A stretch of 64,000 nt of DNA, from positions 16,953 to 80,952 of the forward strand of contig JAKANQ010000002.1 of assembly GCA_021812365.1 (NCBI GenBank), given 5' to 3'. Of the stretch, positions 32,620-40,248 are shown piece after piece. How positions within the stretch are numbered: position 1 is the stretch's first letter; each line of letters starts with the position of its first letter. Source of the stretch: a bacterium. Its GTDB lineage: Bacteria; Patescibacteriota; Minisyncoccia; UBA6257; GWB1-50-10. The position numbers and the translations under genes are program-made. The notes beneath the pieces were generated by a model. The model had not been told where the DNA came from, made no database searches, and was given only the letters and a program-made list of their open reading frames with translations.

Positions 32620-33147
32620 TTATTTTTTTGCGATTTGAGTTATAAATCCTCTGCCGCCTTGTTTCGGGGGGAGTGTCACTTGGTGGGGGGTGATTATCAT
32701 TCCCAAAAACTCTTTCAGTTTTTGCAATCCCCAGTCCTTGTTTCCCTTCTCCCTTCCCTTAAGGAACAATCCTATTTCAACTTTGTGGCCTTCAGCAAGG
32801 AATTCCTCAACTTTCTTCACTTTCACAAGAAGGTCGTTTTGTCCGGCGCGGGGGGTGATGCGAACCTGCTTTAGCTCTTTTGTCTTTTGAGTGGAGCGCT
32901 TCTTCTTCTCCTCCTTTTCCTGCTGGTATCTAAACTTATCAAAACCTATGATTTTTGCAACTGGCGGCTTCGCCATTGGCGCGATTTCGATAAGGTCTAA
33001 CCCTCTTTCGTGAGCCGCTTCCAGCGCCTGACTAAGCGACATAACACCAAGATTTTCGCCGGAATCAGTCACTACACGAAGTTCCGATGCCTGTATTTGA
33101 TTGTTTACTCTATATTGTATGGGAGAATAATACCACAAGTTTCGCAT
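32620..33147 (-). CDS. infC: Translation initiation factor IF-3
   Basis: ...INNQIQASELRVVTDSGENLGVMSLSQALEAAHERGLDLIEIAP... both IF-3 domains present. True start may be a non-ATG codon inside the ORF. Confidence 0.85.
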   Translation of the reverse strand: MRNLWYYSPIQYRVNNQIQASELRVVTDSGENLGVMSLSQALEAAHERGLDLIEIAPMAKPPVAKIIGFDKFRYQQEKEEKKKRSTQKTKELKQVRITPRAGQNDLLVKVKKVEEFLAEGHKVEIGLFLKGREKGNKDWGLQKLKEFLGMIITPHQVTLPPKQGGRGFITQIAKK

Positions 33148-34174: not shown

Positions 34175-34408
34175 TCATCTCCGGATGGTTGATTGGCGGT
34201 CGCGCCAAAAGGTCTGTCTAAAGCGTACCATATAATACATATTTTGTCAATCAACCATCCTTTTTTCCTTCAAATGAAAACAACCCCGTTGTGGGGTTGT
34301 TTTGTGTGGACATCGTTCAAAAATCTTGGAACCAGCTAGAGTGCTTTGTTTTTGAATGGGGCGAGGCAATCAGAAACTTAATGGGCCAAGAATTTATAAG
34401 CGTTAGTA

Positions 34409-34831
34409 TCACACAGCATTAGTAGAACCATCTACGGGCTCTACGTATTCTCGGGTGCCTCTACAGCGAGGAAAACGACTACAACCATAAAACCTACCCC
34501 GAGTACCATTGCGCAAAATCATAGGCGCGTTGCAATGCGGACACGTCATAGAATTACTCGTATTCCCTTCCTTGTTCGCAAATAGTCCGGCAATACCTTT
34601 AATTATTCCACCGATTAAACCAATTATTAAACTGACACCGAGGGCAATGAGAGGATCCGCCTTCACGGTGGTTCGGTTGTAAAGTCTATTGTATGCGGCG
34701 CGTTTTGGATTAGTGATCCAGCCGTACCCACGGGGTGCTTTAAGTCCCATAGAGTGTCTGACTACGCGCTTCCAGGAAGTTCTCGCCGCAATCCTCTTTT
34801 TTAACGATGGTGTTCTTATGCCGAATTTCAT
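34409..34831 (-). CDS. Membrane-anchored protein with C-terminal topoisomerase-type C4 zinc ribbon
   Basis: Basic N-terminus. TM helix LIALGVSLIIGLIGGIIKGIAGLF. Then CPHCNAPM...YGCSRFPRCRGT (zf-C4_Topoisom-like). Confidence 0.45.
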   Translation of the reverse strand: MKFGIRTPSLKKRIAARTSWKRVVRHSMGLKAPRGYGWITNPKRAAYNRLYNRTTVKADPLIALGVSLIIGLIGGIIKGIAGLFANKEGNTSNSMTCPHCNAPMILRNGTRGRFYGCSRFPRCRGTREYVEPVDGSTNAV

Positions 34832-34940
34832 TTTATTAATAAATCATAATTCTTTGCTTAAAAGAGGGAAAGGGTTTTCTGTCCTTTTTATTCAAAAAAC
34901 CGACCAGCGTGATTGGTCGGTTTTTCAGCCTACTTGCCCC

Positions 34941-35396
34941 CTAAGACTGCCAGGGGGAGTTAACTTCTACGGGATAAACGTTCGGGAACCTATCTCCAAC
35001 CTTTGGGTTCCATTTGTCTCCCAGGTGGCGCTCTACGCCATCCAGATGGATTGCTGGAACGGCTGCCCACGTTGCGAAAAGGCCAAGGCCCTTATACGCA
35101 AGAATTTCTGGGTCCTGGTTGTGGTTGGAGAGCCTGTCTCCTATAACTCCCTGTCCAACCCTTACCACCGCTGGATTTGCTCCGCCGTGCCATATAATAT
35201 AAACGCCGCTTAGATTATCGAAATACGAACTTTCGAAATTTAAAGAAGCTAATTCATACCAATGGTCGGGGTGTTTAGCCCACTGCAGTTTTAACACTAT
35301 CTGCTTGTTAAGAGGGGGGTGTCGTGGTATGCTTAAACTGTTAGATTTGAGCATTTGGCCTGTATCGACCCGGAAAATCACGCTTTCCGAAGCCAT
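34941..35396 (-). CDS. Hypothetical protein with GIY-YIG-like nuclease motif
   Basis: GVYIIWHGGANPAVVRVGQGVIGDRLSNH fits the GIY-(x10)-YIG...R..H spacing. Confidence 0.4.
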   Translation of the reverse strand: MASESVIFRVDTGQMLKSNSLSIPRHPPLNKQIVLKLQWAKHPDHWYELASLNFESSYFDNLSGVYIIWHGGANPAVVRVGQGVIGDRLSNHNQDPEILAYKGLGLFATWAAVPAIHLDGVERHLGDKWNPKVGDRFPNVYPVEVNSPWQS

Positions 35397-35582
35397 TTTC
35401 CACTAAAAACATCCTTTCCCGGGTGTTTTTTAGTAGCACGTTGGTTATTAACACCTCCCTATTGTGCTACGGGGGTCAGAGGTATATAATACTATTAACC
35501 CTTAACGTTAATTATATCACGTTTATGAGTTGAAAACAAGCAATGTGTGGACTATGCTGGTCGAGTAGTCCACAACAAAGAA

Positions 35583-35915
35583 ATGATAGTATCTTTCGAA
35601 AAAAAGAAATTAGCTGACCAGCTTGGCAATCCGCGCACTTGTATTCAAAGCTACGGAGTAGCTATGCAAAAAATGATCCATAGGAGGCTAAACGAACTAT
35701 CTGCCGCCCCCTGCCTGGAAACGATGCGCGGCATAGGAGATTGCCACGAATTGCACGGCGTATCAAAAGGACTTTTGGCGATTGATTTAATCGGTAAGCA
35801 GCGAATGGTATTTAGGCCTGCGGCCCCATCGAGCTCATATACAGAAAATAACTGTATTGCCTGGGCGAAGATAGATGATGTGATTATCGTCGGCGTGGGA
35901 GATTACCATAAATAA
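35583..35915 (+). CDS. higB: HigB-type toxin (plasmid maintenance killer protein, RelE/ParE superfamily)
   Basis: MIVSFEKKKLADQL... N-terminus and C-terminal ...IIVGVGDYHK (the family ends in DYH). 5 nt upstream of the HTH-antitoxin gene. Confidence 0.65.
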   Translation: MIVSFEKKKLADQLGNPRTCIQSYGVAMQKMIHRRLNELSAAPCLETMRGIGDCHELHGVSKGLLAIDLIGKQRMVFRPAAPSSSYTENNCIAWAKIDDVIIVGVGDYHK

Positions 35916-35919
35916 AAAG

Positions 35920-37032
35920 ATGAATAAAAACGATTTAATATTTAAGCCTTCTGTTGCCATCGCGCCAGGAGAAACACTTTTCGAATTGATAAATTCACTA
36001 GGCATTACGCAGGCAGAGCTTTCTCGACGAATGAATAGGCCGTTGAAAGTTGTCAACGAAATAATTAAGGGCAAATCAGCAATTACCCCAGAAACCGCGC
36101 TACAACTTGAGCAGGTTTTGGGTAAGCCCGCTTCGTTTTGGAATAATTTGGAAGCAACCTATCAAGGGCTTCGTGCGCGCGAATATTTGCGAGAGCAGCT
36201 GTCTTCGTTGGTTAATGAAGCAGAAAAATTTCCGTATACAGAAATGGCTGGGCTAAATTGGGTGCCAAGGGCAAGCGACGAAATCGACAGGGTCCACAAT
36301 TTGCTAAGTTTCTTCTCCGTAACTTCGTTCGATAACATTGTAGAAAAAGCTGCTCTAAAAGCTGCTTTTGATGTTTCAACTAAGCACAAAAAAGATAAGC
36401 CGGCCATATACGCCTGGTTGAGGCAGGGCGTTAGACAAATTGAAGGATTTCAGACTAAGGATTTTGATAGAAGCAAACTAATAAGCACACTTCCAGAAAT
36501 TAAAGGCTTAACAAAACTTTCGCCCGAGGAATTTATACCAAAATTGACGAGTATTTTGTCTGATTGTGGGGTTGCCTTTGTTGTTGTTAAGAGCATAACA
36601 AATGCTCCGGTTTTTGGTTCTACCAGATGGCTTGCTTCGAATAGAGCGCTAATACAGCTGAGCATTAGACTGCGCTGGGCAGATCGCTTTTGGTTTTCTT
36701 TGTTCCACGAGCTTGGACATATTCTTTATGGAAACAAGAAGGATTTTAATGTCGATTTTCTTGAAAATAACCCGGATGGAGATATTGAGGAAAAGGCTAA
36801 TTCTTTTGCCAGAGATGCACTTGTTAGCCCTGAAGATTATTTGAAAATAGTTAGCGTAATCGCCCCTAGAATTAGAGCAAAACAACCTGTTTATCCACTA
36901 GTCAATTCATTTGCGCAGACGCTAAATATACATCCAGGAATAATTGTTGGAAGGTTGCAGCACGATGGAATTTTCCCTCCTACTTTTAATAAATTAAGGG
37001 ACCGTCTCGAATGGAAAGGGGGCGAAAATTAA
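35920..37032 (+). CDS. HigA-type XRE-family HTH antitoxin fused to an ImmA/IrrE (DUF955) zinc-metallopeptidase domain
   Basis: HTH GITQAELSRRMNRPLKVVNEIIKGKSAITPETALQLEQVLG. C-terminal FSLFHELGHILYG (HExxH) with a downstream E/D, typical of ImmA/IrrE. Confidence 0.7.
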   Translation: MNKNDLIFKPSVAIAPGETLFELINSLGITQAELSRRMNRPLKVVNEIIKGKSAITPETALQLEQVLGKPASFWNNLEATYQGLRAREYLREQLSSLVNEAEKFPYTEMAGLNWVPRASDEIDRVHNLLSFFSVTSFDNIVEKAALKAAFDVSTKHKKDKPAIYAWLRQGVRQIEGFQTKDFDRSKLISTLPEIKGLTKLSPEEFIPKLTSILSDCGVAFVVVKSITNAPVFGSTRWLASNRALIQLSIRLRWADRFWFSLFHELGHILYGNKKDFNVDFLENNPDGDIEEKANSFARDALVSPEDYLKIVSVIAPRIRAKQPVYPLVNSFAQTLNIHPGIIVGRLQHDGIFPPTFNKLRDRLEWKGGEN

Positions 37033-37033
37033 A

Positions 37034-37180
37034 TTAGGTTATTAGGTTTTTAAACCTAATTCGGTTATCCGGTTAAATAACAGGATTTTTCAGTTGGGTT
37101 ATTGGCTTTTTAAAGCCAAAATGGATTTTTGGATTAAATAATCCAATTTCGGTTATTTTGGTTTTTTTAACCTAATTTTC
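37034..37180. repeat. Iteron-like array: four GGTTAT motifs interleaved with A/T-centred palindromes
   Basis: GGTTAT at about 37037, 37063, 37097 and 37150. Palindromes aggtttttaaacct (37043-37058), ttggctttttaaagccaa (37102-37119), ttggattaaataatccaa (37129-37146) and ggtttttttaacc (37160-37172). Lies between two convergent gene ends. Confidence 0.6.
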
Positions 37181-37516
37181 GTGCTTGTCTTCTTTGCGCT
37201 CCTCCATCCACGAGCCACCCTCCCACATTGATTTCATACCCCTTATCAAAGGGTTCATTCCGGCCGCTGCCATAAGGTAATAAAGCACCCCGAATAAGCC
37301 AGCAACGATCATAGCGACTACGCTGCTGAAGTTAAAATCGGAAACCAGCAAAGAAAATATAACCCAAATCCCAAAACCAATCCCGGCTCTTTTGAAATGC
37401 TTTTTCTCCAGCTTTTTCATAGATTGACCTTTGTTAATGTGCTGGCTGAAAACACAAAGCTCCCAGCCAGCGATGACCTTGCGGCCACCAACCCGAGTTT
37501 CCCCGGATTGCCTCAA
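37172..37516 (-). CDS. Small hypothetical membrane protein
   Basis: Two TM helices (IGFGIWVIFSLLV and VVAMIVAGLFGVLYYLMAAAG). The real start may be the internal MKKLEKK at 37420. Confidence 0.35.
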   Translation of the reverse strand: MRQSGETRVGGRKVIAGWELCVFSQHINKGQSMKKLEKKHFKRAGIGFGIWVIFSLLVSDFNFSSVVAMIVAGLFGVLYYLMAAAGMNPLIRGMKSMWEGGSWMEERKEDKHEN

Positions 37517-37956
37517 CAGCGCTCTGACTAGGAGCTTTCTGCTGTTGAGGTCTTGAGGAACCGTGCCGCCGATTTCTCGGACGGGTTAGGTTCTGCCTTT
37601 CGGCTATTCAGTTGTGGTTTTATATTACCTCAGAAAGTGTATAATGAAAATGTTCTTTAAATCAGAGTGTCATCAAGGGAATTAATTTTCTAGCAGTCTG
37701 ACCCCGACTTAGAGCGGGCGCAATATTTCGCAATTCCTTTAAACGCAAAGACCCCAGCGTTTAAGGGATTAGTCTACCCAAACGCTGAGCAGCGTTTTTT
37801 TGTTGTTTTGCGAAAATGCTCACGCTTGAGGAGTGTAGAAAACTAGACCCAATATTTCAGGAAATGGCCGACGCACAGCTTTTAGAGTTGTTGGCGACTT
37901 TGTGTGCACTGGTCGATAGTGTTTTAGATAATGAATTGGACTAAAATAAAACCACT

Positions 37957-39525
37957 ATGAAGCAGAAGGCTCTAATTTACTGTCGCGTATCTTCCGAGAG
38001 GCAAAAAAATGAAGGCCACGGACTTGATGGTCAAGAGCATCGCTGCCGGGAATATGCGAGAAGCAAAGAATATGAAGTTGAGGAAGTGTTTCGGGATAGT
38101 TTTACTGGAGGGGGCGATTTTATGAAGCGTCCGGCTATGCGAGAGTTGCTTAATTATGTCGACAAGAATAGCCATAAAGAATACGTTGTAATTTTTGACG
38201 ATCTCAAGCGCTTTGCCCGAGACACAATCTTCCATTGGAATTTGCGACGCGAATTTCGTGCGCGCGGACTAAAACCAGAATGCCTCAATTTTAATTTTGA
38301 TGATAGCCCGGAAGGAGCTTTTGTGGAAACGGTTTTTGCCGCACAAGGTCAATTAGAACGAGAGCAAAATAAACGTCAGGTGATACAAAAACAAAAAGCC
38401 AGACTAGAAAGGGGCTATTGGCCGTTTTATCACCCGCCGGGTTATAGAGCCATCAACAATCCGATACACGGCAAACTCCTTGCGCCCGTCCAACCGGAGG
38501 CGAAGATAATCAAACAAGCTTTTGAGGGTTTTGCGTCTAACAGATTTCAGGAGCAGGTTGATGTCCAAAAATTTTTAACCCAGGAAGGTTTTGGTGGTGG
38601 ACGAAAAATATATTTGGGAATGGTGGGCAAATTATTACGGAGGGCAATTTATGCTGGCTACATAGAATATCCCGATTGGGAAGTTGAGAGGAGGGAGGGG
38701 CATCACGAGCCATTGATAAGCAAAGAAGTTTTTGCAAGGGTTCAGGAAAAGCTTTCTGGCAAGTTAAAAACTTTTTCCAGGCGCGATACTCGAGAAGATT
38801 TTGCGCTCAGGGGGTTTGTTTTATGTCCGGAGTGTTCGCAGCCATTTACCGCTTCTTGGACTACGAAAAAGCGAAAAAATTACAGAATTGGCTATTATCG
38901 CTGCAAGACGGCTGGATGCTCTCTAAAAAATAAAAATATAAACAAAACAGTTATCGATAAGCAGTTTGAAGAGCTGCTTTCGGGGATCAAGCCAAAATCG
39001 GCAATATTAAAACTAACTCAGGCAATATTTATAAAAGCTTGGAATGACCGAGTGTCCACGGCTGAAATCCGTAAAAGTGCAACGGCGAAGGAGTTGGAGG
39101 TTGTGGAAGGTGAAATAGCAGCATTGGCGCGCAGGGCAGCCAAAACGGGCAGTGAAGAGGCTCTGGGGGCTTATGAGAGGGAGATTGAGGCTCTCGGAAA
39201 GAAGGCCGCCTCTTTGCGGGAAAAGCTGGGAGGATTAGAAAAGCCAAAAATAAATTTTGAAACCGCCTTAAATATGGTTTTTGAATTTATCAAAAATCCC
39301 CACAATAAGTGGGTTAATGGAGATTTGGCAACAAAACGCCTACTCTTAAAAGTTGTTTTTGAGAGCAAGATTAGATACAGCAAAGAAAATGGATTTGAAA
39401 CCGCCAATTTAGCCCTTCCCTTAAGGGTTTTTGAGCATTTTGCGGTTTCTAAATACGCAGGTGTGGAGATGACCGGAGTTGAACCGGTGTCCAAGATACT
39501 TCCCATAGACCGTCTACAAGCTTAG
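37957..39525 (+). mobile_element. Large serine recombinase (phage-integrase type); 3' end reads through the tmRNA gene
   Basis: Resolvase catalytic N-terminus MKQKALIYCRVSSERQ. Recombinase domain. Zinc ribbon CPECSQPF...YRCKTAGCSL. Coiled-coil region. The last ~20 codons are encoded by the ssrA 3' tRNA-like domain on the opposite strand. Confidence 0.8.
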
Positions 39526-39801
39526 TCCTCTTATAGAGAGCGAATTGATTCTAATTTTAACGATTGCATACGAACCTGCTCTGTAATCGCGATTTTCAAA
39601 TATTACACCAGCGAACCCCTATGAAACCTCGGGGACTGATGCCTCACTCTTAAAGAGTGAGGAACACCATTCATTACGCAAATGCGAATGAAGGCGCTGC
39701 AACACGAGTGTTGTCAGTTACATTTTTTTGATCCTTTAACGAAGTGATCGTTTCGGCCTGCAAATCTATGAGTGGGTATATTGTCAAAGCCCAACATCCC
39801 C
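39464..39801 (-). ncRNA. ssrA: tmRNA (SsrA)
   Basis: 5' GGGGATGTTGGGCTTTGACA... 3' ...GGACACCGGTTCAACTCCGGTCATCTCCA closely parallels E. coli GGGGCUGAUUCUGGAUUCGAC... / ...GGACGCGGGUUCAACUCCCGCCAGCUCCA. 5' and 3' ends pair as an acceptor stem. Multiple internal hairpins. Immediately downstream of smpB. Confidence 0.75.
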
Positions 39802-39810
39802 GTTGTTAAT

Positions 39811-40248
39811 TTACGAGACAGCCCTTCGGATCTCGCGCTCCACCTCCCGTTTCTTTATCGTTTCGCGCTTGTCGGCCTTCTTTTTGCCGCGTCCCAATCC
39901 GAGTTCTATCTTCACAAACCCGCGCTTATTATACGATTTTAGTGGCACAATTGTCAACCCTTCATTCAGTTTTCCAAGGAGATGGTTTATCTCTTTGCGC
40001 GTCAAAAGAAGTCTGCGCGTGCGCATAGGATCGTAATTGTCGGGCGCGTTCTTCACCTGAAAGGGATGAATCGTTGAGCCGACAAGGTATGCTTCGTTGC
40101 CCCGAATGACCGCGTGGCTTCCGGACAGATCAAAACGACCCATTTTCACGGATTTTGCCTCGTGCCCCAGAAGTTCGATTCCCGCGACGAACGTCTCGAG
40201 AATCTCATAATCAAAAGTAGCCTTTTTGTTTACGGAATACGGTTCCAT
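39811..40248 (-). CDS. smpB: SsrA-binding protein SmpB
   Basis: ...KKATFDYEILETFVAGIELLGHEAKSVK...YLVGSTIHPF... canonical SmpB. C-terminal basic tail. Confidence 0.85.
   Translation of the reverse strand: MEPYSVNKKATFDYEILETFVAGIELLGHEAKSVKMGRFDLSGSHAVIRGNEAYLVGSTIHPFQVKNAPDNYDPMRTRRLLLTRKEINHLLGKLNEGLTIVPLKSYNKRGFVKIELGLGRGKKKADKRETIKKREVEREIRRAVS

Follow-up and report, generated by a model that had tools for sequence, protein, structure and literature searches.

The role of the peptidase domain in helix-turn-helix (HTH)-peptidase "antitoxins" is at issue, that is, its substrate, its trigger, and which of the two partners is the toxin. This question is raised by a two-gene locus at positions 35583-37032 of a 64,000-nt stretch (hereafter the window, meaning the whole stretch of DNA that was analysed) of contig JAKANQ010000002.1 from a bacterium of the Patescibacteriota. 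A HigB-like gene of 110 codons is followed on the same strand, 4 nt past its stop codon, by a gene (35920-37032, +) for a 370-aa protein in which a HigA-type HTH head is fused to a zinc peptidase of the M78 (ImmA/IrrE, COG2856) family. We read the pair as a type II toxin-antitoxin-like module of the HigB/HigA lineage in which the peptidase fused to HigA would serve as a release switch, the resulting arrest stabilising the carrier element and/or aborting phage infection; to this reading as a whole we give about even credence. The polarity that it assumes, with HigB as toxin and the fusion as antitoxin, is plausible from the sequences, and the idea of a proteolytically triggered antitoxin is reasonable by analogy with better-known peptidase-repressor pairs.

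The 110-aa open reading frame (ORF), which the original prediction had called HigB from its two ends, is present exactly where it had been placed, with MIVSF at its N-terminus and GDYHK at its C-terminus. Public gene calls begin it either at Met28 (83 aa), which removes the first beta-strand with its MIVSF, or at a GTG at 35547 (122 aa), and in the records consulted neither call bears a Pfam annotation or a name; the 110-aa start is favoured by the homologues. The direct PF05015 profile search proposed for this protein returned no match; searched alone, the protein matched nothing in Pfam, NCBIfam or PADLOC even at E<=1 and no PDB sequence (phmmer), and a word-indexed search gave three relatives only. 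Its identity as HigB nevertheless found support from several other sides. PHROG 3066 ("toxin of TA system") was matched directly (E 2e-5), and in a partner alignment of 56 sequences (the window protein, two close homologues, and 53 upstream ORFs from homologous loci) 39 matched PF05015 HigB-like_toxin directly. The profile of this partner family matched the solved structures of GraT (6f8s_B, E 2.8e-8) and P. vulgaris HigB (4mct_B, E 1.5e-7), and its hhalign alignment with P. vulgaris HigB (95.9% probability, E 5e-9) paired MIVSF with MIKSF, His55 with His54, and Arg74 with Arg73. The AF2 model of the 110-aa protein (predicted local distance difference test score, pLDDT, 93) had P. vulgaris HigB chains as its top PDB matches in Foldseek (template-modelling score, TM, 0.76, target-normalised), relative to which it carries a 14-residue insertion (about residues 85-98). 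Work on P. vulgaris HigB by mutagenesis and with ribosome-bound structures identified His54, Asp90, Tyr91 and His92 as critical to its activity and Arg73 as a contributor (PMC5027501). All five have counterparts here (H54/R73/D90/Y91/H92 corresponding to H55/R74/D107/Y108/H109, the DYH being read directly in the sequence), and among 65 loci H55 was kept in 64, R74 in 65, and the C-terminal His motif in 65. By family profile and predicted fold, the 110-aa protein is apparently a divergent but competent HigB of RelE fold and PF05015 type.

The second protein had been described as a HigA/XRE-type HTH running into an ImmA/IrrE domain with an intact HELGH zinc site, and this description held. Pfam HTH_3 (30.8 bits, cut-off 23), Peptidase_M78 (PF06114; 24.7 bits, cut-off 22) and NCBIfam TIGR02607 antidote_HigA (51.8 bits, cut-off 47.7) all scored above their cut-offs, and most homologues of the fusion carry PF06114 in precomputed annotation. 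The HTH head was matched by PDB HigA sequences (E 1.5e-6 to 4e-4), and its best Foldseek matches were all HigA/GraA antitoxins (TM 0.8-0.89, target-normalised). The AF2 model (pLDDT 88; predicted TM score, pTM, 0.79) falls into three parts, the HTH head (~16-95), a helical middle (~96-215) and a zincin-type peptidase (~216-370). The middle region (residues 96-215) is covered by no Pfam family and is conserved within the fusion family, with P105, W114, F132, W166, R168 and G170 invariant in an alignment of 31 homologues. For the C-terminal part, the closest solved structure was that of CapP, a CBASS-associated peptidase (7t5t, E 3.9e-4, 176 columns). HELGH occupies residues 263-267 (nt 36706-36720), and the third metal ligand of the site is present as Glu290 (nt 36787-36789) in the motif IEEKANSFA. 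H263, E264, H267 and E290, whose counterparts in IrrE are H82, E83, H86 and E113 (PMC12828697), are invariant in 31 diverse homologues and in 65/65 genome loci. Judged from these alignments, the catalytic residues of both partners are under selection. The C-terminal tail is all-helical (model residues 304-359) and too short for a GAF domain, so that a GAF-like domain sensing single-stranded DNA (ssDNA) is absent from the fusion.

The pairing of HigB with a HigA-M78 fusion is widespread and already annotated, and the window copy is an ordinary new member of it. Relatives of the fusion protein number more than 3,300, the nearest being from Patescibacteria-type genomes. A scan of one genome per species gave at least 595 confirmed matches, of which the best 80 loci were kept for locus counts; in 72 of these a homologous HigB-like ORF of ~100-118 aa lies directly upstream on the same strand, and at related loci the two genes frequently overlap by 8 or 11 nt (a gap of 4 nt here). 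The module is also carried by 88 plasmid records and three full-length phage copies, and at two plasmid loci inspected the PGAP/RefSeq names were "killer suppression protein" or "RelE/ParE family toxin" for the upstream gene and "HigA family addiction module antitoxin" for the fusion. As far as gene order tells, the pair is kept as a tightly linked or overlapping unit across many phyla, plasmids and a few phages. An all-against-all comparison of neighbours at the 80 loci revealed no conserved third gene, only an occasional hsdS or hsdM.

Among individual settings, homologous HigB / HigA-M78 pairs are flanked by hsdM and hsdS within a type I restriction-modification operon at one locus (L004), which is a defence-island context; at another (L015) the pair adjoins an N6/N4 DNA methylase, and an HsdS-like neighbour lies within 1.5 kb in 7/80 loci.

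Upstream of the pair, a TATAAT box, noted on reading the sequence itself, lies at 35485-35490, and after it comes the palindrome ATTAACCCTTAACGTTAAT at 35494-35512. The palindrome is retained in L081, a JGI metagenome contig, and occurs in the perfect form ATTAACCCTTAGGGTTAAT in locus L082 (proteins 57-62% identical). The promoter scan gave a second promoter-like site, TTGAAA-17-TATGCT (35530-35558). A perfect inverted repeat with 9-bp arms, TGTGGACTA-N11-TAGTCCACA (35546-35574), overlaps the -10 box of this site. The window contains the repeat a single time, where 0.04 occurrences would be expected, and its version in L081 carries a compensatory A>T / T>A change. From position and symmetry we infer that the two palindromes are candidate operators of the pair. 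Neither was found again within the window, the surroundings of the recombinase gene included, which argues against the fusion being the element's own ImmR/ImmA-type regulator.

The pair had also been placed in a mobile island, and the island proved to be a serine-recombinase element of 5.2 kb at the 3' end of the tmRNA gene, with infC (32620-33147, -) on one side and tmRNA and smpB (39461-40248, -) on the other. Its extent of ~5.2 kb is defined by an 86% alignment to L081 that ends at the tmRNA 3' end; there the homology stops, the recombinase ORF continuing into the tmRNA antisense. L081 has the same gene order beside tRNA-Trp instead of tmRNA, and the order is repeated in L088 and L089. No long direct repeats were found at the island ends, and their absence is what a serine recombinase would lead one to expect. 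Compared with L081, the backbone of the element is closely similar (nucleotide identity 96% in the Zn-ribbon gene, 98.5% in the 151-aa gene, 91% in the membrane protein gene and 97% in the recombinase gene), whereas identity falls to 80% in the promoter region of the pair, 67% in higB, 61-70% by part in the fusion gene and 52% in the downstream region, with approximate breakpoints at 35430-35580 and 37030-37100. Since the backbone stands at 91-98.5% and the pair at 61-70%, this comparison of sequences indicates that the pair did not diverge in place and that a cassette exchange replaced it by a divergent allele from its own family, as would suit an autonomous, mobile module that is selected for diversity. 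A scan with the recombinase gave 80 relatives (L090-L169), none of which carries a HigB / HigA-M78 pair, so the pair is optional cargo of the element.

The window pair can be compared with several known systems. With P. vulgaris HigB-HigA (Rts1 plasmid) and P. putida GraTA it shares the toxin-first order, the HigB fold and catalytic residues, the HigA HTH fold, and the TIGR02607 match. However, a classical HigA has ~100 aa and lacks an enzymatic domain, and the window HigA bears 275 more residues including the zinc peptidase.

PD-lambda-2 of E. coli ECOR42 has the same arrangement, in which the HigB-like gene comes first and the next gene joins a HigA-like HTH to an ImmA/IrrE peptidase; its third protein is related to a P4 antitoxin (Vassallo et al. 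2022, PMC9519451; components A PF09907, B PF06114 and C PF14350 in the supplement of that paper). PADLOC PD-Lambda-2_B was the best defence-model match of the window fusion (E 1.9e-31, residues 95-349, the HTH head lying outside the match), and it was matched by 31/31 members of the fusion family. The toxin, in contrast, is of PF05015 type here and PD-lambda-2A is a PF09907-type HigB; none of the 56 partner-alignment sequences, the window protein included, matched any PADLOC model, PD-Lambda-2_A among them. For the PF14350 third gene, no Pfam or PADLOC match was found among the neighbour ORFs in the window, and no such gene was conserved at the 80 loci. The window system thus departs from PD-lambda-2 in two of three components (toxin family and third gene), and the shared middle and peptidase suggest, at the level of sequence, a common regulatory/effector module that is joined to toxin-specific heads.

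RosmerTA, the name given by Millman et al. (2022) to a Zn-peptidase antitoxin and its functionally uncharacterised toxin, and the RmrA-type systems including RipAB (Spr1630/Spr1629) are similar in that a protein with HTH and ImmA-like peptidase stands beside a toxin. Rosmer-type systems have been validated as toxin-antitoxin and phage defence systems with highly promiscuous toxin partners (PMC10440598, PMC12795458), but their toxins are unrelated to HigB. RmrA models matched the peptidase core of the window fusion only, and weakly (E ~1e-7 to 2e-7; other family members to 1e-17), and NCBIfam spr1629 gave 26.7 bits against a cut-off of 335. The window pair resembles both PD-lambda-2 and RosmerTA and is a full member of neither. 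ImmA/ImmR, IrrE/DdrO and CapP/CapH share the M78 fold with its HExxH + Glu site and offer a precedent for cleavage of an XRE repressor, but in these systems peptidase and repressor are separate proteins and there is no toxin.

The idea of a protease-controlled antitoxin was predicted in 2009, has been partly tested since, and is not new here. Makarova et al. (2009) described COG2856-Xre fusions in operons with RelE and PIN toxins and proposed that the protease cleaves the Xre repressor/antitoxin (PMC2701414). Ernits et al. (2023) showed that the antitoxin of ImmA type acts as a promiscuous hub and suggested, for Rosmer-like systems, a mechanism in which the HTH is cleaved (PMC10440598); RipAB is a tested example, in which RipB, the HTH-ImmA antitoxin, depends on ClpX (PMC12795458). 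We found no published report testing the PF05015-HigB / HigA-M78 pairing experimentally.

For the window pair, these precedents and the conserved residues can be combined into the following putative course. HigB would be a ribosome-dependent mRNA endonuclease, and the HigA head would bind and mask it and repress the operon via the promoter palindromes. The M78 domain would be an active peptidase acting as the release switch, which on a trigger would cut the XRE/HigA head or the linker, in cis or across a dimer; this cleavage step is proposed by analogy with ImmA/ImmR, IrrE/DdrO and CapP/CapH. This cut would then free HigB and derepress the operon, and growth would be arrested, with the effect of stabilising the element and/or aborting infection by phage. 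IrrE and CapP have a GAF-like domain that senses ssDNA (PMC12828697), and the AF2 model of the window fusion has no such domain; because of this, ssDNA sensed in the manner of IrrE or CapP is probably not the trigger.

Several points weigh against a HigB that is released by cleavage of its antitoxin. The computed results show neither self-cleavage nor a cleavage site or trigger. The 110-aa toxin has no direct PF05015 match, its assignment resting on family profiles and the predicted fold, and in a mirror-tree (distance-correlation) comparison with the toxin the HTH, middle and peptidase parts of the fusion all correlated equally (r 0.59-0.64, partial r 0.22-0.31), so that none stood out as co-evolving with it. 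Not every M78 protein works through detectable cleavage; Rir, for example, inhibits Crh by binding (PMC12828697). The only experiment on the closest characterised relative, PD-lambda-2, contradicts the simple polarity: there the HTH-peptidase alone was toxic, the HigB-like protein rescued, and the third gene (PF14350, absent here) was needed for defence (PMC9519451). The main rival reading transfers this reversed or mutual polarity to the window pair: the HTH-peptidase would be the growth-inhibiting effector (by host proteolysis or by mis-regulation through the HTH) and the HigB-like protein its inhibitor or sensor, or both would be effectors mutually silenced in a complex. The match of the window fusion and of its whole family to the PD-Lambda-2_B model and the invariant peptidase active site agree with it, but the upstream partners are of another HigB family and none matches the PD-Lambda-2_A model, the conserved HigB catalytic residues would be unexpected in a pure inhibitor, and the toxicity of PD-lambda-2 was seen on overexpression and may not reflect the native role, so that we consider the reversed polarity unlikely for this pair.

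A scaffold role and a role as regulator of the element are lesser rivals. If the peptidase domain were a non-catalytic scaffold (for dimerisation or toxin binding) in a conventional HigBA, release would depend on the Lon or ClpXP of the host, as it does for classical type II modules, and the behaviour of Rir and the dependence of RipB on ClpX are precedents for such a role; an HExxH + Glu site that is invariant in 65/65 loci of many phyla is, however, the pattern expected from selection on catalysis, and a scaffold appears quite improbable. The fusion might otherwise be mainly an ImmR/ImmA-like regulator of the element, controlling excision or recombinase expression, with HigB only a passenger. 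ImmA/ImmR control the ICEBs1 integrase (PMC10440598, PMC2701414), and the pair lies less than 1 kb from the serine recombinase gene, as a related pair in L083 is likewise near one. Against this stand the two-gene unit found in most of the 80 loci, in many phyla and in unrelated contexts including type I restriction-modification operons, the 0/80 related recombinase loci with the pair, the absence of the promoter palindromes near the recombinase gene and elsewhere in the window, and the exchange of the pair independently of the element backbone, and we regard the regulator as very unlikely. A further, speculative arrangement, to which we give little weight, is a two-effector module in which the HigB RNase and the M78 peptidase would both be active and checked only within their complex, and a trigger that breaks the complex would unleash both. 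If it were true, the exchange of whole-pair alleles would reflect selection for new specificities, the pressure being competing copies of the element that escape each other's antidote, or the tracking of different phage triggers.

Returning to the reading with HigB as the released toxin, the window copy brings no new principle. The PF05015-HigB / HigA-M78 pair is among the most widespread versions of the HTH-peptidase pairing, and the copy described here is compact, with two genes and no counterpart of the third PD-lambda-2 gene. Its 5.2-kb carrier element is well defined, and a naturally swapped sister allele (L081) is usable for cross-neutralisation and specificity comparison.

Table 1. Positions of the two-gene module, its putative control region and the carrier element in the window.
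Feature	Position (nt)	Strand	Basis or remark
Serine-recombinase mobile element, ~5.2 kb	34306-39474	.	86% nucleotide identity to L081:73-5190
Zn-ribbon protein	34409-34831	-	Pfam Zn_ribbon_Top1; 140 aa
151-aa protein	34941-35396	-	
Putative promoter and candidate operator region	35485-35574	+	promoter scan, inverted-repeat search
HigB-family (PF05015-type) toxin-like gene	35583-35915	+	110 aa; MIVSF start, GDYHK end
HigA-type HTH head, residues 1-95	35920-36204	+	TIGR02607, HTH_3, PDB HigA sequences, Foldseek
Helical middle region, residues 96-215	36205-36564	+	PADLOC PD-Lambda-2_B model; AF2 secondary structure
M78 (ImmA/IrrE, COG2856) zinc-peptidase domain, residues 216-370	36565-37032	+	PF06114, invariant residues, Foldseek to CapP
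82-aa membrane protein	37172-37420	-	
LOOT RNA (RF03000)	37472-37592	-	Rfam 62.2 bits vs gathering 46.4, full model length
Large serine recombinase	37957-39525	+	Pfam Resolvase/Recombinase/Zn_ribbon_recom
tmRNA	39461-39801	-	

The remaining parts of the element were surveyed as well. The 151-aa protein had no family match, and a metagenome scan with it gave no confirmed relative. In the 140-aa Zn-ribbon protein, the C-terminal part is a topoisomerase-type C4 zinc ribbon and the N-terminal 60 residues match several PHROGs without assigned function. Past the fusion gene, at 37033-37171, the short A/T-rich palindromes AGGTTTTTAAACCT, TTGGCTTTTTAAAGCCAA and TTGGATTAAATAATCCAA are interleaved with repeated GGTTAT motifs, and only the last ~85 nt are common to L081; the region may act as a bidirectional terminator or mark the joint at which the cassette recombined. 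As none of the 80 recombinase relatives has the pair, the idea of variable cargo could not be linked to defence genes. In the window, the recombinase gene and the convergent tmRNA gene overlap at their 3' ends. Of the related recombinase loci, 17/80 overlap a tmRNA in this manner and 15/80 a tRNA (mostly Ala), and many others end at a contig edge; the pattern suggests small elements of one family that insert at tRNA and tmRNA 3' ends and have their att junction inside the recombinase coding sequence. The LOOT RNA segment, which sits between the membrane-protein and recombinase genes, is 96.5% identical in L081.

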